Assembly (NCBI GenBank): GCA_963664625.1
Contig: OY761541.1
Location: 2,571,670 to 2,635,669, forward strand
Length of the DNA stretch: 64,000 nt
Reading direction: 5' to 3'
From: Dehalococcoidia bacterium
GTDB taxonomy: Bacteria; Chloroflexota; Dehalococcoidia; Lucifugimonadales; UBA3495
The stretch's first letter is position 1; the number at the start of each line of letters is the position of its first letter. The notes beneath the pieces were generated by a model. That model saw nothing but the letters and a program-made list of their open reading frames with translations. It ran no database searches and was not told the DNA's origin. Position numbers and translations under genes: made by a program. Positions 10,062 through 58,551 of this stretch are shown in pieces.

Positions 10062-10553
10062 TTACTTTGTCATTAACTCTGGGCACAGAAAAACTGCTTT
10101 AATGCCGTGGCGACGTGACCCTTCACGATGAATCCACCAGTCAGTATCTGAAGCGTTCAGGATATCCGGCTCGTTGCCGCTGGCATGGGCCACCGCAACG
10201 AACTTCCGGTCGCTGCGGTCGAAGGCCATAAGGTCTGGGTCATCAGGAAATTCCTCGAAATCCCGGTCAGAGTGAAGGTTTACTGTTACTTTACGGCAAT
10301 GTTCCGGGTTTGCCTGATTTTCAAAGAGCCACCGGAAAAAGGCATCCCCAATCCCGGGCTGCCCGGACGGGTGAAGGTTGTTACGGTATTCCGTGAGGAT
10401 CAAGCTGCTATCGTTCAACAAGACCCAGCCGTCATTCTGTATACGTTGCAACGTCCGTATGCACTTAAGTATGCAGTCCAGTCCTGCCTGTTGGGTCTTG
10501 CCGTTAGCCACAACAGCAACGTTTGTGTCTATTACTACCTCCAATCCCGTCAT
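10062..10553 (-). CDS. PIN-like nuclease-fold protein (163 aa), partner of the upstream ATPase
   Basis: The ATG overlaps the ATPase TGA (ATGA). VVIDTNV at the N-terminus, then acidic positions TEY, DRSDRKFVAVAHAS and NASDTDW in the order expected for the four PIN acidic residues. Confidence 0.55.
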   Translation of the reverse strand: MTGLEVVIDTNVAVVANGKTQQAGLDCILKCIRTLQRIQNDGWVLLNDSSLILTEYRNNLHPSGQPGIGDAFFRWLFENQANPEHCRKVTVNLHSDRDFEEFPDDPDLMAFDRSDRKFVAVAHASGNEPDILNASDTDWWIHREGSRRHGIKAVFLCPELMTK

Positions 10554-11923
10554 GCCGGCTCGGAATTCTTTTGTCGGTTCAGGGAGGCCTCGCTCATGGC
10601 GGCGATCTCGCCAAATTGGTCTCCAAAGAAATCCCTGGGCCAATTGACAATATTCCCGTATTCGTCGAGTTGAAGGTGACTGAGGCTTGAACTCCCATTC
10701 TCTCCCATAGAGCAGAAATACAGCCCTACATCATCTTGCTCGATACCCTCTTCGGCAATGCGTCGCTGGAGTCTGCGAAGCAGATGTTCGCTGTGACTCT
10801 CGAACAGTATCTGAATTCGATAATTCTTCCAAGCGTCGATGAAGACATCGGCAAGGTCGGCTTGGGCGGAGGGGTGTAAGTGGATGTCCGGTTGTTCTAA
10901 GATCAAAGTAGACATTGGAGGCACATAGAAGCATAAGACAAGAACCGGCAAAACTTGGGAAATTCCAAACCCTACGTCTGCTAGGAGAACCTCAGGGGCA
11001 GTGGGTGACCTCCGCACCGTGGCTTCAAATAAACGGTTGCCAGCGTCCAGTGCCTCGACTCGAAAGTCATGGGCGAGTCCGAGCCGTTTAAGCCAGCTTG
11101 CGATGTATGCGTCAATTCTGGAGAATCGTAGTGCAGAGTCATCCCATATAGCCCGACCATCCTGCTTGGATGCGGCTATAGCGCCGACTACAAATTCTCC
11201 TGTCCGACCCACACCTGAGGGTCGGGTACCGGACCAGCGGTATATGCGCTGTGGCTCGGCACGAAGAGGGCCAAGATAATGCACATTGTGCAAGAGCGAT
11301 TCTAGCCCGTGCTGCAAGCTGGAAAGGAAACCACGGTCTTCAAAGTCCCCCTCTATCCAGCGACTAAAATCGTTAAACTGAAGTGTCGGTGTAGGAATTA
11401 TTTGCCCCGGGCGAGGATTGTGTTTGAACTCCTTGCCATCGACCAATTGGGCGTAACCCCGCCCATTTGGTAGACGTCGCACTCCGAATCGCCGACGATG
11501 GGGAATCCGATAAGACATTTCTTTCAGTACCGGAGGCCCTCTGAATTCGACGACCTCTTTGCCTATTTCAGTATCGAAACCGACGTCGGCATGACTGTCT
11601 ACAGAGCTGTTCCCATACTTTTCTGGAACCACTATTTCTCTTTCGGATTGCCAGTCTAGCGAAAACTTAATGGTCTGATTCGTGTCTTGACAGTGGATGA
11701 CACCCTCGAAGTCGCCTACGGCGACGAGCGTTCGCTCGTCGCCGAAATGGAGCACGACTCCGCGGTCTGAAGAATCAACTGTCTGCTTCATCAGGAGTAG
11801 GGCCTGAAGCAGGCTGGTCTTGCCGGAACTGTTTGTCCCGAATAACCCGGTAATGGGCTTCATCGGGATATCCCCGGTATCCTTCCAGGACTTGAAGTTC
11901 TCCAGCCGCAGCCGCGTAAGCAT
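10550..11923 (-). CDS. ABC/SMC-like AAA ATPase (AAA_15/21 type) with DUF3696-like C-terminus
   Basis: ATG at 11923 is preceded by GAGGAG. RLENFKSW...GLFGTNSSGKTSLLQAL (Walker A), LGPLRAEPQRIY, LILEQPDIHLHP (Walker B/D-loop), ESHSEH (H-loop), NWPRDFF tail. Confidence 0.8.
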   Translation of the reverse strand: MLTRLRLENFKSWKDTGDIPMKPITGLFGTNSSGKTSLLQALLLMKQTVDSSDRGVVLHFGDERTLVAVGDFEGVIHCQDTNQTIKFSLDWQSEREIVVPEKYGNSSVDSHADVGFDTEIGKEVVEFRGPPVLKEMSYRIPHRRRFGVRRLPNGRGYAQLVDGKEFKHNPRPGQIIPTPTLQFNDFSRWIEGDFEDRGFLSSLQHGLESLLHNVHYLGPLRAEPQRIYRWSGTRPSGVGRTGEFVVGAIAASKQDGRAIWDDSALRFSRIDAYIASWLKRLGLAHDFRVEALDAGNRLFEATVRRSPTAPEVLLADVGFGISQVLPVLVLCFYVPPMSTLILEQPDIHLHPSAQADLADVFIDAWKNYRIQILFESHSEHLLRRLQRRIAEEGIEQDDVGLYFCSMGENGSSSLSHLQLDEYGNIVNWPRDFFGDQFGEIAAMSEASLNRQKNSEPA

Positions 11924-11948
11924 CGGGATTCTCCTCATAAGGCCCAGG

Positions 11949-12176
11949 TTACTCGGACTGGTCTGCATCCCATCGGATGCCTGTGCTGAAAATGTCGCCC
12001 TTGATTTCGATCTGGTCCCGCAAGCTGCCGATCAGTTCTGCCCATCGCCCGTCAAATGATGTGACCTTCGCAACAGGCTTTCCATTCCGGGTGATAATCA
12101 GTGCTTCGCTGCCGAGTTCGTCCAGAAGCCTCAGGCACTGTCCTTTGAAACCAGCCACGTCAATGGTTTTCATCAT
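11949..12176 (-). CDS. Phd/YefM-family type II antitoxin-like protein
   Basis: 75 aa. MMKTIDVAGFKGQCLRLLDEL...IITRNGKPVAKVTS...IEIKGDIFSTGIRWDA resembles the Phd subtype usually paired with VapC toxins. Confidence 0.7.
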   Translation of the reverse strand: MMKTIDVAGFKGQCLRLLDELGSEALIITRNGKPVAKVTSFDGRWAELIGSLRDQIEIKGDIFSTGIRWDADQSE

Positions 12177-12199
12177 GAATCACTTGATCTAATCTGGAT

Positions 12200-12208
12200 A
12201 CATTATCA
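12200..12208 (-). promoter_or_regulatory. Candidate extended -10 element (TGATAATGT) for the antitoxin-ATPase-PIN operon
   Basis: Minus strand TGATAATGT lies 23 nt upstream of the ATG. Similar TGATAnAAT elements precede the two other ATPase operons. Confidence 0.35.
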
Positions 12209-12254
12209 ATTGTACCCATACCCCACTACCAGCCGCATCCAGTCAGTCATCCTT

Positions 12255-12773
12255 CTATTCGAGCTTCGGAAGGATCTGGTACCAACCAGAACCGAAGAGA
12301 AGGCCGTCGTGTCGAACGACCCAAGAGTGCTTGTACTCCTGGTTGCCTGTATTGGGGTTGAGGAACAGGTAGTCTACCCACAGCCCGTCCTCTCCGGCCT
12401 CCAGCATTACGTCTCCGAACCGGTAACCCGCCGAATCGACGCCCAAGTCGCCCTTCAGGTCACGGCCCAACTGCTCAGGAACAGCATGGGCGATGATCCG
12501 GTCATCTTCGTCCAGAATAAACACATACCATTCCCCATTCACGCTCTCCGGGGAGTTGTAATATCTGACGGTAGCCTCCCGCCCTTCCTTGTCATATCGT
12601 TTCAGCGCCTGCTTCACTTGGTCAACGGTAAACTCACCCCGGTCCGCCAGATGAATGCTTTCATCTTCACTTTCGGCGACGCTCATTGAGGAGACCAGTG
12701 TGAAAATGGATACGGCCAGCGCGGCCACGGCCACCACCGACGCAAATGACGCGAGAATCACCGCTTTGCCCAT
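12255..12773 (-). CDS. Membrane-anchored extracytoplasmic Cache-like (sCache_2-type) domain protein
   Basis: Start at the internal ATG (MGKAVILASF...), one TM helix, then YYNSPESVNGEWYVFILDEDDRIIAH...GLWVDYLFLNPNTGNQEYKHSWVVRHDGLLFGSGWY, typical of single-Cache domains. Confidence 0.6.
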   Translation of the reverse strand: MGKAVILASFASVVAVAALAVSIFTLVSSMSVAESEDESIHLADRGEFTVDQVKQALKRYDKEGREATVRYYNSPESVNGEWYVFILDEDDRIIAHAVPEQLGRDLKGDLGVDSAGYRFGDVMLEAGEDGLWVDYLFLNPNTGNQEYKHSWVVRHDGLLFGSGWYQILPKLE

Positions 12774-12959
12774 CTTAATAACTCCAAACGGTCGAGAGGT
12801 AATTGTAGCTGCAACCAGTCCTGTGTGGCGGCAAACGTGAGACATTATCTCAACAATGAGGCCACTTTGAAAGAGAGGCCTCTAACCCTCATTTGTGACC
12901 GTCAACGTAGGGTGTTAAACTGAGGCCGATTCGAAAATCGTGAGGCGCAGGGTACTTCC

Positions 12960-13394
12960 ATGAAAGTCTTGTTTGTTTGCAACGCCAACGTGTCCCGCAG
13001 CCAAGTGGCCGAAGCCCTGTATGTCAAGCTGTCGGGCTGCCCTGCGGAAAGCGCCGGCACGCGAGCCGACGAGGTGCTGGCGAGGACGGGTGGACCCACC
13101 AGGATGCTGAAGGAGACCCCCAGCCGGGCAATGGCCTACATGGAGGCAGAAGGCGTTGACATTTCCGAGAACCTGCGGACCCAGTTGACCGCCGAAATGG
13201 TTGAGGGGGCCGACAAGGTGGTCGTCATGGCCGACGTCGACAGTTGGCCGCCCTACCTGCGTAACAACCCAAAGGTGGTTCACTGGGAGTTGACCGATAC
13301 CATCGGCTTGGACGAAGAGGCCGCCAGGAAGATATTCGACGAGATAAAGCGGCGGGTGACGGAGTTGGTTAGCCAGTCCGCTCAAGATTCTTAA
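12960..13394 (+). CDS. Low-molecular-weight phosphotyrosine phosphatase / ArsC-like protein
   Basis: MKVLFVCNANVSRSQ carries the CX5R(S) P-loop of the LMW-PTP family. Confidence 0.75.
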   Translation: MKVLFVCNANVSRSQVAEALYVKLSGCPAESAGTRADEVLARTGGPTRMLKETPSRAMAYMEAEGVDISENLRTQLTAEMVEGADKVVVMADVDSWPPYLRNNPKVVHWELTDTIGLDEEAARKIFDEIKRRVTELVSQSAQDS

Positions 13395-13433
13395 CTCAAC
13401 GTAACACCCAGTCATTTATTAGGAGAGGACGCG

Positions 13434-14813
13434 ATGACTACACGCACGTCAGAGGAAGTCAAAGCCCTGCAGGAAACTGCTCTCGAACACTTGTGGGTCT
13501 ACCTCCGGGAACCCAGCGACATGGCCGAGAAGGGCGAACCCCAGATTTTCGTGGAAGGGAAGGGCGTCCACGTAACCGACGCCCTTGGCAACCAGTTCAT
13601 CGACGCCATGTCCGGCTTGTGGCTCAAGAACGTGGGCTACGGACGGACGGAGATAGCCGACGCGGCCTACCAACAGATGCTCCAGTTGACTTACATGCCC
13701 ATGGGGACCACCAGCGAGGCTGCGGTGCGGCTGTCGGACAAGATAGCCAGCATCACCCCCGGCGACCTGTCCCGCTGTTTCTTCACCAGCGGCGGATCCG
13801 AGTCCAACGAGACCGCAATGAAGCTGGCCCGCGCCTACTTCAAGCGGGTGGGCGAGCCGGGCCGGTACAAGTTCATCAGCCGCAAGGGGTCCTACCACGG
13901 CGCCACCTTCGGCACCCTGGCCTTGGGCGGCACCACCAACTTCCCCAAGGGCGACTATGAGCCGTTGCTGAGCGGCGTCTTTCACGGGCCTCAGCCCAAC
14001 CCCTACCGCTGCGAGTACGGCAGTACCACGCCTGAGGAATGCGCCGAGCTGTCCGTCAAAGCCATCGAGAACATCATCAGGTTCGAGGGACCTGATTCCA
14101 TCGCGGCGGTCATCGCCGAGCCCGTTTCCAGTCCCCAGGGCGCGGTCGTGCCTCCTCCCAACTACTGGCCCATGCTTCGGGAGGTCTGCGACCGCTACGG
14201 TTGCCTGCTGATCGCCGACGAGGTCATTACCGGGTTCGGCCGCACCGGCAAGATGTTCGCTTGCGAACACTGGGGGATCACCCCGGACCTGATGACCATG
14301 GCCAAAGGCATCACCAGCGGCTACATTCCCATGGGAGGGGCCATCGCCCGCAAGCCGATTTCCGACGCCTTCGTGGGCAGCGCCCAAGCTGCCTTCCGCC
14401 ACGTAATCACCTTCGGCGGCCACCCGGTAGCCGCCGCGGCCTCCCTGCGGAACATCCAGATTATGGAAGACGAGGGACTGGTGGAAAATTCCGCCCGCAT
14501 GGGCCGGTACCTGCTGGACGGCCTTGAAGAGCTGAAGGAAAAGCACACCATCATAGGCGACGTGCGGGGTCTGGGTCTCCTCTGCGGATTGGAAATCGTC
14601 AAGGACCGCGAGACCAAGGAGTACTTCCCCGCCGATGCGGAGTTGGGCGCACGGCTGACCCAGGGATTCGCCGAAAGCGGCGTGCTGCTGAGAGGCGGCG
14701 ACGCGATGAACGTTGCTCCGCCCCTCTGCGTCACCGCCGGGGAAATCGACGACATCATCACCGCGATGGACAAGGCCTTTGAGAAGACCTCCCGCGATCT
14801 GGGTATGGCGTAG
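13434..14813 (+). CDS. Class III (omega) aminotransferase, PLP-dependent
   Basis: 459 aa. SGGSESNETAMKLAR, LLIADEVITGFGRTG and TMAKGITSGY (Schiff-base Lys) motifs. Confidence 0.85.
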   Translation: MTTRTSEEVKALQETALEHLWVYLREPSDMAEKGEPQIFVEGKGVHVTDALGNQFIDAMSGLWLKNVGYGRTEIADAAYQQMLQLTYMPMGTTSEAAVRLSDKIASITPGDLSRCFFTSGGSESNETAMKLARAYFKRVGEPGRYKFISRKGSYHGATFGTLALGGTTNFPKGDYEPLLSGVFHGPQPNPYRCEYGSTTPEECAELSVKAIENIIRFEGPDSIAAVIAEPVSSPQGAVVPPPNYWPMLREVCDRYGCLLIADEVITGFGRTGKMFACEHWGITPDLMTMAKGITSGYIPMGGAIARKPISDAFVGSAQAAFRHVITFGGHPVAAAASLRNIQIMEDEGLVENSARMGRYLLDGLEELKEKHTIIGDVRGLGLLCGLEIVKDRETKEYFPADAELGARLTQGFAESGVLLRGGDAMNVAPPLCVTAGEIDDIITAMDKAFEKTSRDLGMA

Positions 14814-14823
14814 CCCAAGCCCT

Positions 14824-15531
14824 TTACCCGAAGATCCCGAAGGGGTTGAGGGTGCGCGGATTGTCGTAGGCGTCCATTTGCTCAGTGCGCTTGAGCCAGC
14901 CCACCACTAAGTAAGTCAGGGGGGTCGCGGCGGCTTCGTACAGAGACTTGGCAATCCAGCCCGTGACCACCAGGTTGAACGCCTGCGTCCAAGTCAGGAA
15001 GCCCGACACTCCGAAAGCGATGGTGAAAAAGAGCAGGGAATCAACCCCCTGCCCTATGACAGTGGACGAAATGGTGCGTACCCAAAGGAACCGCCCCTTC
15101 GTCCACAACTTGAGAACCACCATGACCCCGGCGTTTACGAACTCTCCGGTAATATAGGCGGAGAAGGACCCCAGCAGAATCCACCCGGTGGAGCCGAGTA
15201 TTGTCTCGTAGGCTTCCTCCCCCTCCCAGAAGGCCGGGCCGGGCAGAATGTTCCCGACCCAGAACAGGAACACCATCAACAAGTTGCAGGCGAAGCCCAG
15301 CCAGATGACGCCCCGCGCCGTTCGGAACCCGTACACTTCCACCAGTACGTCGCTGATGATGTAGCCGATTGGGAAGCAAATAATGGAGGCGGCGATTATG
15401 AACTGGTCGCTGCCAATAAAGCTGAACGGCATGGTGAACAGGTAGACTTGCTTGACCGCTATGATGTTGCTGACCAGCAGCACGGTGACGGCTAAGGCGA
15501 CGATGATTACGAGTTTCCCGGAGAATTGCAT
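14824..15531 (-). CDS. Queuosine-precursor transporter (YhhQ/DUF165 family)
   Basis: Polytopic membrane protein. FPIGYIISDVLVEVYGFRTARGVIWLGF is the family signature. Confidence 0.75.
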   Translation of the reverse strand: MQFSGKLVIIVALAVTVLLVSNIIAVKQVYLFTMPFSFIGSDQFIIAASIICFPIGYIISDVLVEVYGFRTARGVIWLGFACNLLMVFLFWVGNILPGPAFWEGEEAYETILGSTGWILLGSFSAYITGEFVNAGVMVVLKLWTKGRFLWVRTISSTVIGQGVDSLLFFTIAFGVSGFLTWTQAFNLVVTGWIAKSLYEAAATPLTYLVVGWLKRTEQMDAYDNPRTLNPFGIFG

Positions 15532-15575
15532 CAGCTAACGGTCCTTGAAGTCTGAAGGTTGTTTGGAGCCGGGCT

Positions 15576-16947: not shown

Positions 16948-17036
16948 CTTACTGCGTTCCTCCGCTCACATTATACAAGGCGCAAGGATTCGGGCGGTGC
17001 TAAAATAGGCCGGGAAAGAAAAAATGCAGGTGTGGT

Positions 17037-19990: not shown

Positions 19991-20938
19991 TCACGTCTTG
20001 GTGATTTTCGGGCCGACGTAAACCACGTATAGAGGCTCGCCCGCAGGCACCGGCCAGGAAAAATGAAGCCGTATTACTTCTGTCTTTACCTTGCCGTGCC
20101 AAGTGCAAAACAGGCGTTGACCGGGTGAGTCGGGGTGGGGAAACGTCAGATCGTTCTCGAAGCGGCTCTTTTCAGTGGTTGAGGAGTCCGTAAACCAAGC
20201 ATTTCCTCCGGTGAAATGGTCCTGAAGTATCCGGTAGTTCTCCGGTGTGTAGTGGCCTCGTTCGTCGATAGCCCCCATAAACCGGTCGAGGGTATTCAAA
20301 AGACGTTGGATGCCGTGGGCGGCTCCCGGAACAAAAGGATGACCTTCCAAGGGAGCGAAACTATCTTCCGAGAACCTCAGTCTTTGATAGCGTGAAATGG
20401 AGATGTTTTCCAATTGCCGCCAAGTGGTAACTGGCGGCTCTGCGCGCTCCAGCGCCGCCGCTAGTCCCTTCTCTTCCCACCAGTTAGGCGTCTCGATAGT
20501 GTCCCTGCCGTTTTCCGTCAAGACGACAGGGATGGGCGAATATTCCCAAGCCGACGGAGATACGCTCACCAACTGGCGGTCGATTCCCATAGTTTTGCAG
20601 TAGGCAGCCTCGCCGACAGCAGTGTCGGTGACAATCTTGCCGCCGCACTCCAGCCAATGGTCGGGGTTATGTTCCCGCACATCCTCCCAGAATGGCCCTT
20701 GTTTTGTCATCCACGACAGAAGAGACCCCTTTTGGTCACGGGAAAATGTCTGGAGGGCTTGAAAGACCGAAGTGGACGGGTTGATAGAACAGTTCAGTGT
20801 GTTCCTGTGGCAATGCAATTCGCGGCCAAATCGCTGGGCGAGTCTGCGCATCCCGACGATTCGGCCAATGGCTACCCGGAACACCGCTGCATCGTGAAAC
20901 TGCTGATGAATCGACAGATCGTTGAGAAGAAGTTCCAC
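19991..20938 (-). CDS. Hypothetical 315-aa protein, third gene of the DUF262-ATPase operon
   Basis: The GTG start abuts the ATPase TAA (TAAGTG). I recognise no motif with confidence. The C-terminus FCTWHGKVKTEVIRLHFSWPV..LYVVYVGPKITKT is faintly RelE/HigB/Gp49-like. Confidence 0.5.
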   Translation of the reverse strand: MELLLNDLSIHQQFHDAAVFRVAIGRIVGMRRLAQRFGRELHCHRNTLNCSINPSTSVFQALQTFSRDQKGSLLSWMTKQGPFWEDVREHNPDHWLECGGKIVTDTAVGEAAYCKTMGIDRQLVSVSPSAWEYSPIPVVLTENGRDTIETPNWWEEKGLAAALERAEPPVTTWRQLENISISRYQRLRFSEDSFAPLEGHPFVPGAAHGIQRLLNTLDRFMGAIDERGHYTPENYRILQDHFTGGNAWFTDSSTTEKSRFENDLTFPHPDSPGQRLFCTWHGKVKTEVIRLHFSWPVPAGEPLYVVYVGPKITKT

Positions 20939-22081
20939 TTATTCGCCCCAACCGGCAAAGTAGTCCAGGTCCTTGTCGAACTGGTCGAAAAAGCCTTCAG
21001 GCCAAACGTCAATGCTACCGGAACTGTCCAGGGTTGGACTCAACACTTGGGAAGCACCCCGAGTGCGTTGCCTGAAAAAGTGAATCGCTACCTCATCAGC
21101 CGAGATGCGCTCCGACTTGACGGACCGGCGAATCCCGTTGAGAACATGGTCACTGTGGGTTTCCACGATCGTCTGAATACCGGCATGGGCAACGTCCGCC
21201 AGCAATTGTCCCATAAGGGCCTGTCCGGCTGGGTGTAAATGCACTTCCGGGTTTTCTATCAGCATAAGACTGCCCTTGGTGACAGTGAGGGCAGCGACTA
21301 TGATCGGTAGGATTTGCGTAATGCCAAACCCACAGTGGACTGGTCTTAGGAACCCCGTATCGTTGGAAGTGCGGATTCCCAGGGTCGCTGCATTGGCGTT
21401 AGGCACCTGCTGCACGTCAATGGCGCAACCCGGGAAGAATGACGAGAGCCTTGCCCCGACCTGATGTAGCAGAGTCGGAAGATCGTCCTCTAGCAAGAGA
21501 TCCCTCGCGATAAGTTCATCTCCTCTGCCCCAGTATAAAACGCTTACCGCATTCTCCCCCTGAGGGCCAACTAATGTGGCGATATGCTGGTCTTCCAGTA
21601 GATAAGTTTCACGGGGTCCCTCACGCTCCGCCGTAATATATGTTAAATTTCTAATCTGGCTTATCAAAGATATGATGGCATCGTCCGCATCAGCGGGCAA
21701 CAGGTAATGGAGAGTGTCAGGGTTATCATATCTGGCATCTCCGATCTGAACGCGATTGACTTGCATAGACATGTCCTGCCGGTCGCCAGTGAAGGACCAT
21801 CGACAAATTGCACTTTCGTCCATGAGTCCAATGTCGAACCGGCGAGTGCCATTTACCTGGTCAACCACGTCCGTCACGGTTCCAAGTTTGGTTATTGAGC
21901 CGTTAAGCATCAGACGAGTGGACCATTCACGTTCGCGCATGGTTTGGTGTAGTAAGACGAGAGACTGTATAACCGTAGACTTTCCAGACGCATTTGTTCC
22001 CGACAGTAGAGTAAGTGGGCAGAGCGGAAGTCTCAGAAGTTCAAAGCACTTGAACGTCTCGAGGTCAAGTCGAGTCAGCAC
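20939..22081 (-). CDS. ABC/SMC-like AAA ATPase with DUF3696-like C-terminus (paralog 2)
   Basis: GTG at 22081 lies 6 nt after GGAGG and overlaps the DUF262 gene by 17 nt. LETFKCF...LLSGTNASGKSTVIQSL (Walker A), YITAEREGPRETY, LMLIENPEVHLHP, ETHSDH, VWPEGFFDQF. Confidence 0.8.
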   Translation of the reverse strand: MLTRLDLETFKCFELLRLPLCPLTLLSGTNASGKSTVIQSLVLLHQTMREREWSTRLMLNGSITKLGTVTDVVDQVNGTRRFDIGLMDESAICRWSFTGDRQDMSMQVNRVQIGDARYDNPDTLHYLLPADADDAIISLISQIRNLTYITAEREGPRETYLLEDQHIATLVGPQGENAVSVLYWGRGDELIARDLLLEDDLPTLLHQVGARLSSFFPGCAIDVQQVPNANAATLGIRTSNDTGFLRPVHCGFGITQILPIIVAALTVTKGSLMLIENPEVHLHPAGQALMGQLLADVAHAGIQTIVETHSDHVLNGIRRSVKSERISADEVAIHFFRQRTRGASQVLSPTLDSSGSIDVWPEGFFDQFDKDLDYFAGWGE

Positions 22082-23174
22082 CAAACACCTCCTGAAACAT
22101 CTTCGCGGTTGCATTGAACCTATGATCAACCCTTCGAGTATCGTTGGTGCCGTAAGTGATGGACGTTATGAAATCATCATCTTTCATAAGCTTATGGAAT
22201 GCTTTCTTGAGAGCACATGCTCGGCTCTTGACCAACTCTTGCGGGAATCGTGAGAGGCCGGTCGTCATAACATCCCACAAAGAGGCATTGATGACACTCC
22301 GGCGGCTTTGGCCTTCGAGATGCTTCCGAAAAGCGTGTTCTTTAAACACTACAAAGTTGTTGTTCAACCCAGTGTAAAACTCGGCTGATAGCCTTGAAAG
22401 CTCAGCATCTCCAAGATGATTCATAAGTTTGAGTGTGTCCGCCAGAAAATCATCCATTTCACCACGATAAGTGTCACGCGACAAAAGTTGAAATCCACAG
22501 AAACGGTTCACGAACTCCCGGTCGCGCATTTGTGCGGTGTTCAGACTGCCACCCGTAGCTTCCAGAAAAAGAGGTTTATTAGCTTCTTCTTTCAAAAAGC
22601 GGGTTCCTGGCCCCATGTATAGGCAATTCCGCATCTGTTGGCGGGTCAGGGGTGCACCGCCGTTCACACGCTCAAATATGTCTAGGCGTGCCCTTTCAGG
22701 CGCTTTTGAGTCTATGATGTATAGCGTAAGGTTACAGTCCTCAATTCGGTTCTGTAGCCTGGACGGTAAGTCATTAAAATGCTTCCCGTTCAATTCGGGA
22801 TGATCGTGCAGCCGTAGAGCAAGTCTATTGTCTACGAAGTTCTGAAAGGTAGAAAGCCGTTGCAAGCCGTCAACCACGACCATCCGGCCGTCTTCATTTT
22901 CCGCGATGTAGAAGACCGGCAATGGTATTCGCATCAACACCGACTCGATTAACTTGCTTTGTTTATCTACAGGCCAAATGAAGTCACGTTGAAAGTCTGG
23001 GTCCATAATGAAATTGCCTTGGCTAATCCTTCGCAGCACGTCGTGAATAGTGCGACTCTCATTGCGAATAAGCATAGTGTCAAGAGGATATTCGCCTAGA
23101 GCACTATCTTCAGGACTCCCGATGCCTTCAGGTTCTTCTACTTCTGAATCCACCTGTTGCGTAGTCACGAACAT
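22065..23174 (-). CDS. DUF262 (ParB/Srx-fold, DGQQR-type) protein
   Basis: DPDFQRDFIWPVDKQSKLIESVLMRIPLPVFY...VVVDGLQRLSTF is the DUF262 N-terminal signature. At 369 aa, no DUF1524/HNH-like His-Me motif was noticed. Confidence 0.75.
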   Translation of the reverse strand: MFVTTQQVDSEVEEPEGIGSPEDSALGEYPLDTMLIRNESRTIHDVLRRISQGNFIMDPDFQRDFIWPVDKQSKLIESVLMRIPLPVFYIAENEDGRMVVVDGLQRLSTFQNFVDNRLALRLHDHPELNGKHFNDLPSRLQNRIEDCNLTLYIIDSKAPERARLDIFERVNGGAPLTRQQMRNCLYMGPGTRFLKEEANKPLFLEATGGSLNTAQMRDREFVNRFCGFQLLSRDTYRGEMDDFLADTLKLMNHLGDAELSRLSAEFYTGLNNNFVVFKEHAFRKHLEGQSRRSVINASLWDVMTTGLSRFPQELVKSRACALKKAFHKLMKDDDFITSITYGTNDTRRVDHRFNATAKMFQEVFGADST

Positions 23175-23200
23175 TACCTCACTGACATATCTGTCAGTTC

Positions 23201-23209
23201 ATTTTATCA
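23201..23209 (-). promoter_or_regulatory. Candidate extended -10 element (TGATAAAAT) for the DUF262 operon
   Basis: Minus strand TGATAAAAT lies 26 nt upstream of the ATG. The palindrome CTGACA-TATC-TGTCAG (23182-23197) lies between it and the start codon. Confidence 0.35.
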
Positions 23210-33027: not shown

Positions 33028-33169
33028 CCATGATAATCAAAGGTCGGTTTTCTTGACGCAACGTAAACAAACATTATAGATTATGGCATGGACTAACCTC
33101 ATTTGGAGCGTCTCTGACGCGGAAACCAACCCATACTACCGGGCAAGGCTTGCCCCCCGCCTGGCCCCA

Positions 33170-33200
33170 GGTTCCCGCCTGCGCGGGAAAGACAGAGTGG
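33170..33200 (+). repeat. REP-like hairpin repeat copy (TTCCCGC-N4-GCGGGAA + purine-rich tail)
   Basis: GGTTCCCGCCTGCGCGGGAAAGACAGAG. Confidence 0.85.
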
Positions 33201-33205
33201 GGCGC

Positions 33206-33240
33206 GGGATGCCCGCCTACGCGGGCATGACGGGAAGTGG
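33206..33240 (+). repeat. REP-like hairpin repeat copy (variant stem)
   Basis: GGGATGCCCGCCTACGCGGGCATGACGGGAAGTGG. Confidence 0.85.
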
Positions 33241-50405: not shown

Positions 50406-50457
50406 CGAAGGGCTCCGATGAAGGAGCCCTTCGCAAGAACGCCGGAACAGGGGTTGG

Positions 50458-52308: not shown

Positions 52309-52369
52309 CTTCCCTCTCTTTCGTGGCGATTTGGTGTCACACTCACCTTACCTAACAGCAATACACCCG

Positions 52370-52825: not shown

Positions 52826-52857
52826 GTCGCCTCCTTTCCAGGTTGTATAGGCGGGGG

Positions 52858-53475
52858 CTACTCCAGCCAACGGACAAAGTTGGATACAGGCGTGCGCTGG
52901 GAGTTGGGGTCTTCGGCGGGATAGCCGATGGAGAGCATCGTGGCCAGCGTCCAGTCTTCTTCGGCGCCCAAGGTTTTGGCCAAGTCCGGGTGGCGGGTGG
53001 GGCCGCCGGTCTCCCAAGTTACGGCCAAGCCCTCGGCCACTCCCGCCAGGGCGATGTTGTGGGCGGCGCAACAGACTGACGCGTAGTTCTCCTTGGTGCC
53101 TTCTTCGTCGCGGCCGGGAGTGGAGTACAGGTAGATGATCACCGGGGTCTTGAGCAAAGAGTCGCGGGTGGCTTCGGCGCGCCGGGCGTCGCCGCGCCGC
53201 TCCAAGGCGTAGTCATGGGCCAGACCGGCCACCTTCTCCGACGCCGCGCTGCCTTTCTCCATGACGAATATGCGCCAGGGCTCGGTGAGGCGATGGTTGG
53301 GCGCCCAGACCGCGGTGTCCAACATGCGGTCCAGGGCATCCTTGGGCACTGGTTGGTCTTTGAAGTCCCACGCCATGCGGCGGCGGTAGAGGGCTTCGTA
53401 AACGGTGACGTTCGTCTCCGGTACGGGGCAATCGGCGAAGCCTACTTTTTCCGGGCTTCCGGACTCAGTGGACAT
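52858..53475 (-). CDS. Nitroreductase-family protein
   Basis: ATG at 53475 lies 5 nt after GGAGG. RRMAWDFKDQPVPKDALDRMLDTAVWAPNHRLTEPWRIFV is typical of the family. Confidence 0.8.
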   Translation of the reverse strand: MSTESGSPEKVGFADCPVPETNVTVYEALYRRRMAWDFKDQPVPKDALDRMLDTAVWAPNHRLTEPWRIFVMEKGSAASEKVAGLAHDYALERRGDARRAEATRDSLLKTPVIIYLYSTPGRDEEGTKENYASVCCAAHNIALAGVAEGLAVTWETGGPTRHPDLAKTLGAEEDWTLATMLSIGYPAEDPNSQRTPVSNFVRWLE

Positions 53476-53489
53476 GCTGGCCTCCTCTC

Positions 53490-53576
53490 GCACCACTGAT
53501 TATCATGGACCACTGATTATCCTGATTTATCAGATGAATCAGATGAATCAGCGGTATCCCATGAATCAGCGGTAGG
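53490..53576. repeat. Composite imperfect palindrome related to the 32981-33027 element
   Basis: ACCACTGATTATCATGG ACCACTGATTATCCTGATTTATCAGATGAATCAGATGAATCAGCGGT ATCCCATGAATCAGCGGT. It shares the CTGATTATC(T/C)TGATTTATCAGAT core. The central arms match 18/23. Confidence 0.85.
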
Positions 53577-53669
53577 CGTTCCTGTTTCCTGTTCCGTCGT
53601 TACAAACGCTTCGGGTGGGTGTATACGGTAAACGAGACAGGCCGGTCCCATGCAGCCTGCCCCCGGCTT

Positions 53670-53705
53670 GGTTCCCGCCTACGCGGGAAAGACGAGGGAA
53701 GGGGG
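53670..53705 (+). repeat. REP-like hairpin repeat copy
   Basis: GGTTCCCGCCTACGCGGGAAAGACGAGGGAAGGGGG. Confidence 0.85.
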
Positions 53706-53744
53706 ATGACCGGCCTGTCCAATCGTGTAGCGATATGCGGGCTG

Positions 53745-55172
53745 TTAAGACCCTTGGGAAATCCGGGTGAAGGCGGCGTACTCGGTGGTGTTGGTGTCGG
53801 CTCCCTGCCAGCCCTCCTTGGCGACCTTGAGGTTGTCCTGGGCTGCGGCGAGGTCGCCGAGTCCCTGCTGGGCGCGGGCCATCCAGTAATTGTCGCGGGG
53901 CGACTCTCGCTTGGACAGGCGGTCCTTGAGCATTGCCGTCGCCTTGTCGAACTCTCCGGCCCTGAGGCAGGCTTCCACCAGAGTGTCCTCGAACACCAGC
54001 CGCTGGGCGTGGCTGCCGCCGACCCTGGTCAGTTGCGGGAACACCGGCTCCATCAACCGCACCGCTTCGGCGTAGTCGCCCTGACCGAATGCGCCGATGC
54101 CCTTGACCAGCGGCAGGGTGGCCTCAAGAGCGGTGGCGTCACCGCTGTCGGCCATCGCCTGAAGGCCGTCGACCAGCTTGTTGAACGACTGCTCGTCGCC
54201 GGCGGCGGTAAAGGCCAGGGCGGCGTGGGCATCGCGGAAGGACGGGCCGGGCCTGACCGCGGCCGGCGCGGCAAGGTCGACAATTTCCTGCCAGGGAGCG
54301 TCGGGAGCTTTGTCGCCGTAGACGCGCATCCGCCAGATGAGGGACGCGCTGTCGGCCAAGGCCTGGTACCTGAGACCCTGCACCGCCGGGCGGATGTCAT
54401 TCTCGTACCATCCCAGGGCGTCGTTGTAGCGGCCCCGGGCCAGTTCGAACAGGGCTTGATGCCAGGACAGGTGGACGCGGTAGGCGGAGCGGCGGTCGTA
54501 GTCCTCAAGCCAGTTGCCCAGGAAGGACGCTCCATCTTCATCCTGGCTCAACTCGTAGAAGACGTGGGCCACAGAGTGGACGGCCACGCCGTTGTCGGGT
54601 TTGATGTTGAGAGAACGCTCGGCCAAGTCCATGCCCTCGGCCATCAGGCCAATCTCATGGTTGGCCCAAGAGTACTGGCCCATGAAGGCCCAGTCGTCGC
54701 CGTACTTGGGCGCCACGCCACTCATCAGTTGGTAGAACCGGGGCGGGTAATCGGGGATTCCGGCCCCGACGCATCCTTGGACGTAGAGACGCTGGGCCAA
54801 GCGAAGGATCATTGCGTCGAGGGGGAACTCGTTCAAGTGCTCGTGCACCGCCGCGGTAGCCGGAAGGTTCTGTCCGTTGACGAACTTGGACACAACGTCG
54901 ATATACTGCCGCTCCCGCTGGGAGATGCCGGACGACTGCTTGACGGCGGTCTCAGCGCTCTCCCGGGCCTCCGGCATGGCGACGCGGGTGGCCTGCATGA
55001 AAGCCAACGCTGCGCGGGCCAGGGCAAACCCCTCGTCGGCCTCGATTGCTTGGGCAAACTCCTCTTCGGCGCCGTAGCTCTGGGCCAATGCCAGGTCCAA
55101 GCCCGTTTCGAAGTGGGCCAGCGCCGTGTTGGAAGATGTGGACACGGGAAGTCCGTAACGATCGTTAGGCAT
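53745..55172 (-). CDS. Tetratricopeptide-repeat protein (TTC38-like)
   Basis: 475 aa, all-helical with TPR-like periodicity. The N-terminus MPNDRYGLPVSTSSNTALAHFETGLDLAL resembles the TTC38 family. The antisense 522-aa ORF has shadow-like composition. Confidence 0.65.
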   Translation of the reverse strand: MPNDRYGLPVSTSSNTALAHFETGLDLALAQSYGAEEEFAQAIEADEGFALARAALAFMQATRVAMPEARESAETAVKQSSGISQRERQYIDVVSKFVNGQNLPATAAVHEHLNEFPLDAMILRLAQRLYVQGCVGAGIPDYPPRFYQLMSGVAPKYGDDWAFMGQYSWANHEIGLMAEGMDLAERSLNIKPDNGVAVHSVAHVFYELSQDEDGASFLGNWLEDYDRRSAYRVHLSWHQALFELARGRYNDALGWYENDIRPAVQGLRYQALADSASLIWRMRVYGDKAPDAPWQEIVDLAAPAAVRPGPSFRDAHAALAFTAAGDEQSFNKLVDGLQAMADSGDATALEATLPLVKGIGAFGQGDYAEAVRLMEPVFPQLTRVGGSHAQRLVFEDTLVEACLRAGEFDKATAMLKDRLSKRESPRDNYWMARAQQGLGDLAAAQDNLKVAKEGWQGADTNTTEYAAFTRISQGS

Positions 55173-55194
55173 GAGTCCTCCTTATGAAGATGAT

Positions 55195-55230
55195 GGATTC
55201 CCGCCTTTGCGGGAATGACGGGGGGATAGG
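55195..55230 (+). repeat. REP-like hairpin repeat copy
   Basis: GGATTCCCGCCTTTGCGGGAATGACGGGGGGATAGG. Confidence 0.9.
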
Positions 55231-55237
55231 GCGGCGT

Positions 55238-56065
55238 TCAGCCCAGGCCGGACAGGAACTCGTTGATGATGCGGTTGAACTCGTCGGGTTTCTCGGCGAG
55301 AGGGAAATGACCGCATTGATCGATTTCCCGGACGGTGGCGTTGGGGATGGCGTTGGCGTAGAGGTGGGCGCATTCCACCGGGACCACCGCGTCCTGGGAA
55401 CCCCAGATAATCAGCGTGGGGGTGTCGACCTTGGCCAGATAGTGAGGCAGGCTGGGGTTGTGCAGATAAGGCTTCCAGCAGAGCCGGGACGACATCTCGC
55501 GGTTGGAATGGTCAACCAGAGTCTCTTCCGGAGTCAGCTCGCGGGTCCAGTACGCCTTTTCGACCTCGGGGACTTGGGACTCGTCGTAGAAACGCTGGGC
55601 CGCGCGGGTCTGGGCCGACACCATGAAGACCTCGGCAATCTCCCCTTGCACGGGCTTGATCCCCGCGGCGTCCACCAGCACCAGCCCCTTCAGATCGTGG
55701 TGGTCCATAGCGGCCATCTCAGCGGCCACCCAGCCGCCCATGGAAAAGCCTACCAGGACATAGTCGCGGAGGCCAAGCTCGTGGACCATGGCTTGGTTGA
55801 AGTGGGCCAGGTCAGTAATGGTCGAAATCCAGGGAGGCCGCGGGGTGCCGTTGTATCCGGCTTGGGACGGCGCGTAAACGGTGTGGGTCCGGGCCAGGTT
55901 GTCCAGATACGGTTGCCATCCGGGACTTCCGCCGGCCCCGTGGAGGAACAGCAGGGGCGGCCCGGAGCCGCCGGAAAACATTTGGACTTCGTGCCCTTGT
56001 ACGGTAATCGTGGACTCGTGTTGACTGGCAGTAGTTGTCATTGAGACCCTCCAAACGCCTTCCAA
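55238..56065 (-). CDS. Alpha/beta hydrolase (meta-cleavage-product hydrolase-like)
   Basis: PLLFLHGAGG, GFSMGG nucleophile elbow, C-terminal CGHFP. Confidence 0.82.
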   Translation of the reverse strand: MEGVWRVSMTTTASQHESTITVQGHEVQMFSGGSGPPLLFLHGAGGSPGWQPYLDNLARTHTVYAPSQAGYNGTPRPPWISTITDLAHFNQAMVHELGLRDYVLVGFSMGGWVAAEMAAMDHHDLKGLVLVDAAGIKPVQGEIAEVFMVSAQTRAAQRFYDESQVPEVEKAYWTRELTPEETLVDHSNREMSSRLCWKPYLHNPSLPHYLAKVDTPTLIIWGSQDAVVPVECAHLYANAIPNATVREIDQCGHFPLAEKPDEFNRIINEFLSGLG

Positions 56066-56186
56066 GTCAGGCCAGGTCAGGCGTCACGTTCACCCGATTC
56101 TGGTACAGAATCAATATCGTGTCAAGGTTGGGGCCAGTGACCGTAGTGTTCCGCCTCGCGTGGTCAGTCCAACGATGACGGCACGG

Positions 56187-56216
56187 TGGATTCCCGTGCA
56201 GGCGGGAATGACGCGA
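56187..56216 (+). repeat. REP-like hairpin repeat copy (degenerate)
   Basis: GTGGATTCCCGTGCAGGCGGGAATGACGCG. Confidence 0.75.
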
Positions 56217-56320
56217 TGTGGTTGAGGTTACCGCCAGGATTTGGCAGCCGCTGTGAAATTCCAATGGAGATATTCTACGTAACCGGGTTTGCTTGATCAC
56301 CTGAACCATGCCTTGGCCGA

Positions 56321-56329
56321 TGATATAAT
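56321..56329 (+). promoter_or_regulatory. Candidate extended -10 promoter element (TGATATAAT) for the ATPase-PIN-membrane operon
   Basis: TGATATAAT lies 19 nt upstream of the ATG at 56349, inside the spurious 5' extension of the track ORF. Confidence 0.4.
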
Positions 56330-56348
56330 CGGCACGAGGACAGTCGGC

Positions 56349-57590
56349 ATGATAACGAACATCACACTGGGCAACTTCAAGTGCTTCCGGCACGTGAGCA
56401 TCGATCCGAAGCTGGTTACGGTCCTGATTGGGCCCAACGGCACCGGCAAGTCGGGGGTTCTGCAAGCGTTGATGTTGCTGAAGCAATCGAGGGACGATGT
56501 CAGGTCATTGAAATTGCATGGTGATTTGGTGTGGTTCGCGCCGGAGGCATTCGTGTTTCAAGGCTGGGATAGGGCATCGGACGAAGTCGGGCTGGCTCTG
56601 TCCGGATATTGGCTGGTCGAATCAAGAGCTGCTGAAACTCAGGTTGATTTTACGGTTGAGCTTCGGTATTCAAGAGACGCCCAGTTACAGGGAAGGCGAG
56701 GGAAAACGACACTTAAGGCATTTGGAGAGAATTGGGAGATTCCTGTCAGCCCCACGGACATACAGGATCGCATTGATACTTTCTCTGGTGCGCTCGTTTA
56801 TGTGAGCGGACATGGAATAAACGATTTCAGGGGTAACGGTGTAGGTAGGGTAGTAGCAGAATACCCTGAACTTTGGGAACAAGTATCACGAGCCCCCGGA
56901 TCTGTCGTCGGCAATCTGAAGATGGTCCCGGCAACCAGGGCGTTGACTCGAGGCACCTATCACTTGGGGCCAGAGCCTTTCGTGGACATTTCGGGCGTGG
57001 AAGGTCTAGGCAAACAAGAAGAAAACACAGCCACTACCTTGGCTTATTCGCGGCGCGATGTCGAAAAAGTTTCCCATTTGATGAAACGAGTCACAGGGGT
57101 GGGATTCAGAACGGACACTGTTCCTCCGCAATCGGCAATGCCAGTTTCGGAGTCTCCGGTTGGTGATTTCAGTCTCGTTGCCGAAGGATTCGGGACGAAC
57201 GCTTTGGTGCAACTTCTGTTTGAAGTGGTGAGGGCTGTTCCGGGGGTTACGGTGTTGATCGAGGAGCCGGAAGTCCACCTTCACCCCAGAGCGCAGGCCG
57301 ATTTGGCGTCGGTGCTGGTGGAGGAGGCCAAGGCGGCCGACAAGCAGATAATCATGACCACGCACAGCGAGCATGTAGCGGGGAGACTGCTTACACTGGT
57401 GGCGGAGGGGACACTATCGCCGGACGAGTTCGCCATCTACTCTTTCGAAAAGGATGATGACGGTGTCTGTTCCGCACAGAAAATCGAAGTAACCGAACAT
57501 GGTCAGGTCGTGGGTGGCCTGAGGAGCTTCTTCGAGACCGACCTGGACGAAATGCGGCGGTTTGTGGATGCGCTGCGCGCCAAGGCATGA
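56349..57590 (+). CDS. ABC/SMC-like AAA ATPase with DUF3696-like C-terminus (paralog 3)
   Basis: MITNITLGNFKCF...VLIGPNGTGKSGVLQAL (Walker A), VPATRALTRGTY, VLIEEPEVHLHP, TTHSEH, C-terminal LRSFFETD. Confidence 0.8.
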   Translation: MITNITLGNFKCFRHVSIDPKLVTVLIGPNGTGKSGVLQALMLLKQSRDDVRSLKLHGDLVWFAPEAFVFQGWDRASDEVGLALSGYWLVESRAAETQVDFTVELRYSRDAQLQGRRGKTTLKAFGENWEIPVSPTDIQDRIDTFSGALVYVSGHGINDFRGNGVGRVVAEYPELWEQVSRAPGSVVGNLKMVPATRALTRGTYHLGPEPFVDISGVEGLGKQEENTATTLAYSRRDVEKVSHLMKRVTGVGFRTDTVPPQSAMPVSESPVGDFSLVAEGFGTNALVQLLFEVVRAVPGVTVLIEEPEVHLHPRAQADLASVLVEEAKAADKQIIMTTHSEHVAGRLLTLVAEGTLSPDEFAIYSFEKDDDGVCSAQKIEVTEHGQVVGGLRSFFETDLDEMRRFVDALRAKA

Positions 57591-57994
57591 CGCCACGTTT
57601 CATCTTGGACGAAAACGTTGTAATACTGGCGCAACAGGGGCTTGATGAGAGGGGGAATCTCAATCCCGTCTGCGCCGAACTGATCCAACAGATCATAGAG
57701 ATATGCCACACCATTGTGGTGGATGATGTTTTGTGGGACAAGTTTGATGAGCAACTCAACCGGGCCGGTCACCAACAGCCTCAAGCGGGTTCCGTCCTAT
57801 TCCGTGTCCTTTGCAACGCCCTCGCGACGGCCAATAAGATGGACGGGTTGGGTCACACCGCACCGTCCTTCAATGAAGAAGGTTCGATTCCGCCCGGAAG
57901 CATAGACGACACGTATATCGTCCGACTGGCGGTGGAGTCCGAAGCGGTCCTTGTCACTACTGACGGTCCTCTTCGAGACGACCTGCGGGAATGA
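57587..57994 (+). CDS. PIN-like nuclease-fold protein (135 aa), paralog of 10062-10553
   Basis: The ATG overlaps the ATPase TGA (ATGA). FILDENVV at the N-terminus, SIDDTYIVRLAVESEAVLVTTDGPL at the C-terminus. Motif order is the same as in the first copy. Confidence 0.55.
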   Translation: MTPRFILDENVVILAQQGLDERGNLNPVCAELIQQIIEICHTIVVDDVLWDKFDEQLNRAGHQQPQAGSVLFRVLCNALATANKMDGLGHTAPSFNEEGSIPPGSIDDTYIVRLAVESEAVLVTTDGPLRDDLRE

Positions 57995-58551
57995 CCATCC
58001 AAGTCGCCGGAACTGGTCTGATACGGTACGATATAGACATGTTGAAGCAAGAAGATAAACCGCTTTATTGGGACAACCACGAGGGGTTTCGGCGGCTGCT
58101 GATAATCGGCAGTATCTCGCTGGTTATCGGTGTCTTTTTCGGCGACCAGATTGGGCTGTCTGATGGATTCACGTGGCTTCGAGGATGGTTCCCGATTTTC
58201 ATGTGGGCTTCCGGGCTGGTTACCTTGGCTATATGCTTCCTGGTCCATCCACGGCAGTATTCAATTTACCCGGACTACTTGGCGGTTGAGTGGTGGTATC
58301 CCCGCCGGAAGGTCGTCCCTTTCAATGAAATAACCGAGCTCCAAGCTTGGACCAGCGTGGGCCGGCGGAAAATCATCGTGCTAAGCAAGGGTGAGGACTA
58401 CGATTTCGGCTTCGACGCAATCGCGCCCCGGCGGGTAGAAGTATTTGCCCAACGGCTGGAAGAGTCGTTGAACCGCCACCGTTTCTATGCAGGCCGGGAC
58501 CCCCTCCAGATTCGGCCGGAACGGTCGCGCCGGGACAAGGATAAGGGCTAG
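57991..58551 (+). CDS. Membrane protein: two TM helices plus a C-terminal PH-like (bPH/YdbS-like) domain
   Basis: The ATG overlaps the PIN-like TGA (ATGA). Hydrophobic segments LLIIGSISLVIGVFFG and WFPIFMWASGLVTLAICFLV. Then YSIYPDYLAVEWWYPRRKVVPFNEITELQAW...IIVLSKG, resembling bacterial PH domains (inference). Confidence 0.5.
   Translation: MTIQVAGTGLIRYDIDMLKQEDKPLYWDNHEGFRRLLIIGSISLVIGVFFGDQIGLSDGFTWLRGWFPIFMWASGLVTLAICFLVHPRQYSIYPDYLAVEWWYPRRKVVPFNEITELQAWTSVGRRKIIVLSKGEDYDFGFDAIAPRRVEVFAQRLEESLNRHRFYAGRDPLQIRPERSRRDKDKG

Follow-up and report, generated by a model that had tools for sequence, protein, structure and literature searches.

Three DUF3696-type ABC ATPases in a Dehalococcoidia chromosome: probable separate acquisitions of HEC-03, Menshen and an uncatalogued HEC-03-like cassette with a truncated PIN gene

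The 64,000-nucleotide stretch of Dehalococcoidia contig OY761541.1 analyzed here (the window) encodes three ATPases of the OLD-type ATP-binding cassette (ABC) group within 48 kb, each accompanied by its own partner genes, and it is highly probable that these represent three separate, horizontally acquired anti-phage cassettes lodged between housekeeping genes. Judged from its profile matches, locus 1 (10062-11923) is a complete, full-length HEC-03 system (Hma-embedded candidate 03; Payne et al. 2024, bioRxiv 10.1101/2024.01.29.577857), composed of an ATPase and an active-looking, VapC-like PIN protein, and locus 2 (19991-23168), assigned in the same way, is Menshen (Millman et al. 2022; Li et al. 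2025, PMC12065111) in the canonical order NsnA-NsnB-NsnC; both are already known systems. Locus 3 (56349-57994) pairs an ATPase with a PIN-fold protein in a two-gene, HEC-03-like cassette that is uncatalogued and whose PIN gene is truncated in this genome. The initial annotation of the window had instead pictured three paralogous ATPases that recruit interchangeable effectors, their operons sharing a TGATA-type promoter.

Mutual identity of the three ATPases (Table 1) is 26-30%, with pairwise BLASTP E values of 3e-28, 1e-23 and 4e-18; those of loci 1 and 2 align end to end, and each pair that includes the locus 3 ATPase yields two local pieces, one at the N-terminus and one in the C-terminal half. 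In a three-way alignment all of the landmarks listed in the initial annotation are present in a common order in the three open reading frames (ORFs), starting with an N-terminal L-x-NFK hairpin and including a GFG signature. For the proteins of loci 1, 2 and 3 in turn, Walker A reads GTNSSGKT, GTNASGKS and GPNGTGKS; Walker B reads LILEQPDIHLHP, LIENPEVHLHP and LIEEPEVHLHP; the H-loop reads SHSEH, THSDH and THSEH; and the C-terminal FF motif reads FFG, FFD and FFE. An R..R..Y segment found in all three is the arginine-for-glutamine Q-loop described for NsnB. The ...EPE.HLHP and THS motifs are generic to OLD-type ABC ATPases. Among the models of PADLOC v2.0.0, the defence-system set used throughout, NsnB, HEC-03B and PDC-M55A are the top three ATPase models for the proteins of loci 1 and 2 and score 95-419 bits over all three ATPases; the GajA, PtuA, HEC-01A and OLD models shown each give at most 64 bits with all three, and only generic AriA models come near the leading three, giving about 57-102 bits and, for the locus 3 ATPase, ranking second, ahead of HEC-03B and PDC-M55A. 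Pfam places AAA_15/AAA_21 in all three ATPases and a significant DUF3696 in those of loci 1 and 2, with whose DUF3696 regions the C-terminal tail of the locus 3 ATPase aligns. Taken together, the model ranking, the pairwise matches and the alignment support assignment of the three ATPases to one specific subfamily, DUF3696-tailed OLD-type ABC ATPases, with a likeness that extends beyond a generic P-loop or AAA_21 resemblance. The initial annotation had proposed a single family on the basis of the landmarks and had remarked that its members are spread along the chromosome rather than gathered in one island; both points stand, as the genes form three islets apart from one another, with housekeeping neighbours (thiC, uvrA and a PALP enzyme).

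The assignment of locus 1 rests on both of its proteins. The ATPase scores 419 bits against HEC-03B (PDLC04148; E 8.9e-126), its residues 1-452 lying on profile positions 1-453 of 458, and the PIN gene, in the same orientation, has a 4-nt overlap with the ATPase gene at its stop codon. Across 20 homologues of the PIN protein D9, D115 and D136 are invariant and E55 is nearly so, and in about 35 metagenomic loci a HEC-03 PIN gene lies directly 3' of the ATPase gene. Relatives of the ATPase at 81-82% identity adjoin thiC in related genomes. The islet boundary in the window is given by the thiC control region, which starts about 77 nt past the HEC-03 PIN gene; it consists of a perfect TTGACA-18-TATAAT promoter at 9956-9985 (-) upstream of a thiamine pyrophosphate (TPP) riboswitch at 9815-9928 (-) (Rfam RF00059, 64.7 bits), which lies ahead of thiC. 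In published work a HEC-03 representative tested in Escherichia coli was validated by plaque assays, both genes being needed, and HEC-03 was toxic on induction in that host (bioRxiv 10.1101/2024.01.29.577857).

At locus 2 the nsnA start is probably the GTG at 23168, as this gives the 367-aa length of the homologues and as alignments with relatives show no conservation of the upstream ATG. The DUF262 domain of NsnA begins near residue 43, too close to the N-terminus for an additional sensor domain to precede it, and the locus therefore looks like type I Menshen. NsnB has the variant motifs defined for this protein (PMC12065111), namely a Walker B with 'EN' (here LIENPE), arginine in place of the Q-loop glutamine (ER..PRETY), and GxG for SGG (the GFG signature). 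NsnC has been described as an N-terminal inactive PIN-like domain joined to a C-terminal nuclease (Li et al. 2025, PMC12065111). Close relatives share only about 64% identity with the N-terminal half of NsnC, compared with 78-91% for NsnA, which fits the NsnC polymorphism reported in the literature. Between the promoter-like box of this operon and the nsnA Shine-Dalgarno sequence there is a perfect 6+6 palindrome, CTGACAGATATGTCAG (23181-23198, (-)), which could be an operator and is only partly conserved in the related loci L064 and L066 (TTAACAGATTCGTCAG).

Locus 3 differs from the other two in that the pair has no dedicated PADLOC v2.0.0 model. The best match of its ATPase is NsnB with 149 bits only (HEC-03B, 99 bits), and the HEC-03 profiles are not matched by the partner, the truncated PIN protein giving E 3.5e-4 and full-length members at loci L001 and L007 giving no PADLOC match. 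ATPase homologues at 48-72% identity are found in Dehalococcoidia metagenome-assembled genomes (MAGs). A PIN fold for the partner family is predicted by the AlphaFold2 (AF2) model of a 90%-identical homologue (predicted local distance difference test, pLDDT, 86), whose top PDB matches in Foldseek are all VapC toxins, PIN domains or HARP RNase P, and D8, E9, D108 and D126 are conserved over 110 full-length representatives. Similarity to the HEC-03 PIN family is remote (hhalign E 1.8e-4, probability 49%), and against PDB sequences the family profile finds marginal PRORP and HARP matches only (E 0.4-0.8). The family is also small, with 300 clusters at 50% identity among 1.84 billion representatives.

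The ATPase and PIN genes of locus 3 nevertheless travel together. The pair is kept in seven other contexts whose flanking DNA is unrelated (L001, L005, L006, L007, L075, L076 and L077), the genes overlapping by 4 nt in all of these but L007, where they are directly adjacent; three of the seven are named Dehalococcoidia MAGs, the group to which all named relatives belong. A scan of genome contigs with the locus 3 ATPase returned only 3 loci, too few for a catalogue of partners. The edges of the cassette are the promoter box on the 5' side and a point about 15 nt beyond the PIN stop codon, which gives a unit of about 1.75 kb. The architecture is therefore the HEC-03-like one of a DUF3696-type ABC ATPase and a PIN-fold protein conserved as a pair. 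Three metagenome contigs (L002-L004) have the gene for an ATPase of the locus 3 type split between two ORFs of 284 and 111 aa, through either a frameshift or an assembly error, a hint of decay of the cassette in some populations. A conserved third gene (343-360 aa) upstream of the locus 3 relatives was considered and rejected: it is common to L001 and L005 only, and is not found in the window, L006 or L007. The 344-aa proteins concerned (L001:3580-4614 and L005:1735-2769, 86% identical) are encoded just 5' of the cassette, have a D...EVK motif reminiscent of PD-(D/E)xK nucleases, and give no PADLOC match.

In comparison with L005 the window is without ~207 bp (window 57985-57995 versus L005:4643-4849). 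The deletion removes the 3' end of the PIN gene (its last 21 codons) together with the intergenic spacer and creates an ATGA overlap with the next gene; in L005 the stop codon of the full-length PIN gene is followed by 127 nt and then by the same gene, which encodes a membrane-like protein. There is somewhat less than an even chance that locus 3 is for this reason a decaying remnant, inactivated by the deletion, and that two functional systems are left in the window. The 21 residues are kept in nearly all of the listed homologues and make up one helix, the final beta-strand and the C-terminal helix of the AF2 model, and the split ATPase genes of L002-L004 would show this type of cassette decaying; on the other hand, the locus 3 ATPase ORF is intact with all motifs present, the truncated PIN protein retains D8, D107/D108 and D126, and its reading frame ends cleanly in the ATGA overlap.

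The membrane-like protein encoded beyond the overlap had been listed in the initial annotation as a membrane/PH partner of locus 3. The gene is indeed adjacent, but it probably lies outside the locus 3 system and is a neighbour belonging to the chromosomal backbone, because its identity to L005 is backbone-like (91.5% at the DNA level, the upstream backbone being 91% and the cassette 79% identical), because in L005 it stands apart from the PIN gene by the spacing given above, because it is absent from L001-L004, L006, L007 and L075-L077, among them all six of the other cassette contexts, and because the protein has no Pfam, PADLOC or NCBIfam match. A palindrome resembling repetitive extragenic palindromic (REP) elements, GGATTCCCGCCTnCGCGGGAATGAC, is dispersed in the window (10 matches versus 0.9 expected), with (+) copies at 33169-33231, 34459, 53669, 55195, 56188, 58696 and 60817, some of which flank locus 3; one copy is present in the L005 spacer that the window has lost, and the palindrome yields spurious ORFs, e.g. 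'...SRLCGNDG' at 55184. The REP-like element GGATTCCCG...CGGGAATGAC was considered as a cassette boundary and rejected, as it flanks locus 3 but is dispersed through the window.

Locus 1 has a complication of its own in a Phd/YefM-like ORF, outside canonical HEC-03, that sits 46 nt 5' of the ATPase gene and shares its promoter box. The match of this ORF to Pfam PhdYeFM_antitox (E 1.8e-5) is under the gathering score; its plasmid homologues are annotated as Phd/YefM antitoxins, and the gene next to the homologue is an annotated VapC toxin in Acaryochloris and an unannotated 142-aa gene in Paracaedimonas. On these grounds, and given the toxicity of induced HEC-03 in E. coli, locus 1 might be a three-gene hybrid in which the HEC-03 PIN toxin has the Phd/YefM-like protein as its antitoxin, its autorepressor or both. 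Such an arrangement is unlikely: a search of 59 loci, about 45 of which are HEC-03-like, turned up no homologue of the ORF; in the four closest HEC-03 relatives the interval from the upstream gene to the ATPase has no called ORF; the Pfam score is below threshold; and a 1.4-kb ATPase gene stands between the putative antitoxin and the PIN protein, whereas in Phd-VapC the antitoxin gene is immediately upstream of, and coupled to, the toxin gene.

Some features of HEC-03 loci outside the window were also recorded. About 30 metagenomic loci (L014, L016, L019-L037 and L048-L055) have a common leader ~45 nt 5' of the ATPase start, with a TGnTAAACT box at -42/-43 followed by CTCTCC and, about 15 nt downstream, a Shine-Dalgarno sequence GGAGGG; this leader is not present in the window. 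A hairpin in the leader was entertained and set aside, as RNAalifold gives a 6-pair CUCUCC/GGAGGG pairing but there are no compensatory changes. Two HEC-03 pairs on plasmids have further defence-like genes beside them: that of Acinetobacter soli (L069) neighbours an N-6 DNA methylase, a type IIG-like protein and an HNH endonuclease, and that of Azotobacter (L068) neighbours an RNA ligase family protein and a DEAD/DEAH helicase fragment.

With respect to transcription, the initial annotation had placed a TGATA-type extended -10 element 19-26 nt before each operon and had contrasted these elements with housekeeping promoters of the classical -35/-10 kind. The motif TGATAWWDT does have exactly three matches in the window, each upstream of one operon and on the correct strand, but this count is not above chance (1.5 expected; at least 3 in 19 of 100 shuffles). 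The locus 1 element precedes the Phd-like ORF and not the ATPase gene, and neither element nor ORF is found in the closest HEC-03 relatives (L060-L063), which are 81-82% identical, occupy the same thiC-adjacent site and carry TTGACA-18-GAAATT instead; at locus 2 the distance from the probable GTG start is 32 nt, not 26. The boxes of loci 2 and 3 consist of a TG and a -10 hexamer near the first gene, the best -35 match being only 2-3/6. Conservation supports both of these as functional, predicted promoters: the locus 2 box TGATAAAAT is kept in L064 and L066, with TGTTAGAAT in the differently placed L067, and at locus 3, where DNA homology with L001 and L005 starts about 8 nt 5' of the box, the relatives have TGATATAAT, TGTTATAAT or TGCTATAAT, a TGnTATAAT or TGTTAGAAT box being found in five of the seven. 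Because the third base varies (TGTTATAAT, TGCTATAAT, TGTTAGAAT), the conserved feature appears to be a generic TGn extended -10, neither 'TGATA' as such nor specific to defence, and one that is common in this genome. The TGnTA form also precedes uvrA (TGCTAAAAT, 30 nt upstream), an hdr-like gene (TGTTAAACT, 33 nt), a lactamase_B gene (TGGTAGAAT, 36 nt), ribF (TGTTAGAAT) and tRNA-Pro (TGATATTCT); thiC has its perfect classical pair, but the housekeeping promoters are not all of that type.

The effectors call for a similar revision. That an ABC ATPase may be combined with diverse effectors is an already published framework (bioRxiv 10.1101/2024.01.29.577857; PMC12065111), and the partners named in the initial annotation do differ, with a PIN-like protein at locus 1, a DUF262 protein (NsnA) plus an 'unknown' (NsnC) at locus 2, and a PIN-fold protein at locus 3. 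To call them interchangeable, however, is an overstatement: the gene after the ATPase encodes a PIN fold in loci 1 and 3, and an inactive PIN has been reported for NsnC (PMC12065111), so that a core ATPase/PIN pair may be conserved across the loci and only elaborated in Menshen. If the reported inactive PIN holds for NsnC of the window, all three loci share a core of ATPase tail and PIN fold, and Menshen would add a DUF262 sensor and a fused nuclease to it. A single ATPase family with truly interchangeable effectors, its operons co-regulated by a special TGATA promoter unlike those of housekeeping genes, is quite improbable. It would accommodate the single subfamily of ATPases, the differing number of partner genes and the position of the only three TGATAWWDT matches in the window, but it is opposed by the recurrence of the PIN fold next to the ATPase, by the standing of the membrane protein as a backbone neighbour, by the same extended -10 at five other genes, by its variable third base in relatives, and by the locus 1 box, which belongs to the Phd-like ORF and is replaced in the closest relatives without that ORF.

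Rather than one family diversifying in place, base composition, relatives and insertion sites point to three independent acquisitions. The guanine-plus-cytosine (GC) content of the islets is 0.50-0.56, compared with about 0.60-0.64 elsewhere in the window, and GC at third codon positions (GC3) is 0.56-0.62 in the islets and 0.75-0.85 in housekeeping genes. The locus 1 ATPase has relatives at 54% identity in Caldilineaceae and NsnA has relatives at 75% in Rhodothermaceae, and two of the insertion sites recur in related genomes, HEC-03 by thiC and Menshen by uvrA. Because of the low GC3, the closer relatives elsewhere and the separate site of each cassette, the cassettes are read as independent horizontal acquisitions and not as local duplicates, and the term 'paralogous' used in the initial annotation is better replaced accordingly. 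True paralogy, in which the three ATPase genes were duplicated in this region and then diverged and captured new partners, is very improbable: it has in its favor only the occurrence of three members of one subfamily within 48 kb, whereas the ATPases are just 26-30% identical to each other and each cassette has relatives at 54-91% identity in other genomes and phyla, the site of each is conserved in related genomes, and their base composition appears foreign. Outside the islets, the window ORFs that were scanned are housekeeping genes; ten ORFs in the other lower-GC stretches of the window include no further defence genes, a weak mad2 match being given by an RsmD-like methyltransferase among them.

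Table 1. Features of the three loci, in window coordinates
Feature	Position	Strand	Remarks
HEC-03 PIN effector, 163 aa	10062..10553	-	HEC-03A PIN model PDLC04147, E 1e-36
HEC-03 ABC ATPase, 457 aa	10550..11923	-	AAA_15/AAA_21 and DUF3696 (Pfam); ATG at 11923, GAGGAG Shine-Dalgarno
Phd/YefM-like ORF, 69 aa	11970..12176	-	between promoter-like box and HEC-03 ATPase; outside canonical HEC-03
TGATAATGT, extended -10-like box	12200..12208	-	23 nt 5' of Phd-like ORF; hexamer TAATGT, 3/6 versus TATAAT
NsnC effector, 315 aa	19991..20938	-	PADLOC NsnC E 4.6e-113, full length
NsnB ABC ATPase, 380 aa	20939..22081	-	PADLOC NsnB E 1.4e-102; Pfam DUF3696 E 2.1e-14
NsnA, ParB/DUF262, 367 aa	22065..23168	-	PADLOC NsnA E 6.2e-117; Pfam GmrSD_N E 1.2e-22
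TGATAAAAT, extended -10-like box	23201..23209	-	32 nt 5' of nsnA GTG start
TGATATAAT, perfect extended -10 box	56321..56329	+	19 nt 5' of ATPase ATG; 5' edge of mobile cassette
Third DUF3696-type ABC ATPase, 413 aa	56349..57590	+	AAA_15/AAA_21 (Pfam); uncatalogued subfamily
PIN-fold partner of locus 3 ATPase, 135 aa	57587..57994	+	truncated; family norm 156 aa
Membrane-like protein, 186 aa	57991..58551	+	adjacent; probably backbone neighbour

Published Menshen models, together with analogies to PARIS, Septu and Gabija, suggest how such cassettes might act. Each would comprise an OLD-type ABC ATPase with a DUF3696-type tail, a partner gene directly after it and an extended -10 promoter (TGnTA...T) of its own. 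The ATPase would oligomerise, and its DUF3696 tails would clamp the PIN-fold partner and hold it inactive, as in AlphaFold models in which the tails of the NsnB dimer clamp the inactive PIN domain of NsnC (PMC12065111). A phage cue would then shift the ATP-dependent conformation; for Menshen this would be DNA, recognised by NsnA (ParB/DUF262), and for the two-gene systems something detected directly by the ATPase. The nuclease, once released or activated, would cleave RNA and halt the infection (abortive infection).

Several points weigh against the reading of the window as three anti-phage cassettes of this kind. For this organism, both the defence activity and the use of the promoters are matters that we infer, and the step of clamping and release is extrapolated from the AlphaFold models (PMC12065111) and from other ABC-ATPase systems. 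The locus 3 ATPase has no significant Pfam DUF3696 match, its tail being assigned by alignment alone, and the locus 3 cassette may be inactive owing to the truncation of its PIN protein as modelled. The Phd-like ORF of locus 1 is left unexplained by HEC-03. For NsnC of locus 2 the single-sequence AF2 model is unusable (pLDDT 37), and comparison of its N-terminus with both PIN families gives no hhalign signal (probability <1%); the PIN-like character of this N-terminus is as reported in the literature (PMC12065111).

With loci 1 and 2 reduced to plain annotations (HEC-03 and Menshen), most of the apparent novelty of the region is removed. What is new is the compact locus 3 cassette, with its own predicted promoter and mapped edges, which offers a clonable HEC-03-like candidate from Chloroflexota, a phylum under-sampled for phage defence. 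The presence of a PIN fold after a DUF3696 ATPase in HEC-03, in the new family and, reportedly, in Menshen suggests a common interface between ATPase tail and PIN fold, and if this is true the published Menshen model becomes testable in simpler two-gene systems. The natural C-terminal truncation of the locus 3 PIN protein and the Phd-like addition at locus 1 provide ready variants for studying how the effector is restrained. It is tentatively proposed, as a possibility clearly short of an even chance, that the pairing of DUF3696 tail and PIN fold is the ancestral core of a superfamily that includes HEC-03, Menshen, probably PDC-M55, and locus 3. Menshen would then derive from a pair of ATPase and active PIN, the PIN having lost catalysis and become an adaptor for a new nuclease while a ParB/DUF262 sensor was added, and 'simple' and 'elaborated' stages would stand side by side in this genome; locus 3 would stand for a new anti-phage system whose named occurrences to date are all in Dehalococcoidia MAGs, and the Phd-like ORF would hint at a further, antitoxin-regulated variant.

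Among known systems the closest to loci 1 and 3 is HEC-03. Locus 1 matches both of its hidden Markov models (HMMs) over their full length and has the same gene order, ATPase then PIN, with overlapping genes, differing by the extra Phd/YefM-like ORF upstream; locus 3 has the same two components, a DUF3696-type ABC ATPase and a small PIN-fold protein with conserved acidic residues, but its ATPase reaches 99 bits on the HEC-03 model compared with 419 for locus 1, and its full-length PIN relatives are unmatched. Locus 2 does not differ substantively from Menshen NsnABC, all three proteins giving strong full-length HMM matches. The PADLOC candidate PDC-M55 resembles all three loci in that each window ATPase matches PDC-M55A (95-194 bits) and in that its partner gene, like those of other plasmid DUF3696 ATPase pairs, lies directly downstream as in the window; its partner PDC-M55B is, however, about 315-350 aa long and is matched by no partner in the window. 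More distantly, PARIS (AriA-AriB), Septu (PtuA-PtuB) and Gabija (GajA) resemble the mechanism proposed for these loci in that a nuclease effector is held or regulated by an oligomer of OLD-type ABC ATPases, but their effectors are Toprim and HNH proteins and there is no DUF3696 tail. With VapBC and Phd-VapC the likeness is in the VapC-like PIN-fold nucleases and in the Phd/YefM-like ORF upstream in locus 1; unlike those toxin genes, the PIN genes of the window have no small antitoxin gene adjacent to them, and an ATPase takes the place of the antitoxin, a point also made by the authors of HEC-03 (bioRxiv 10.1101/2024.01.29.577857).

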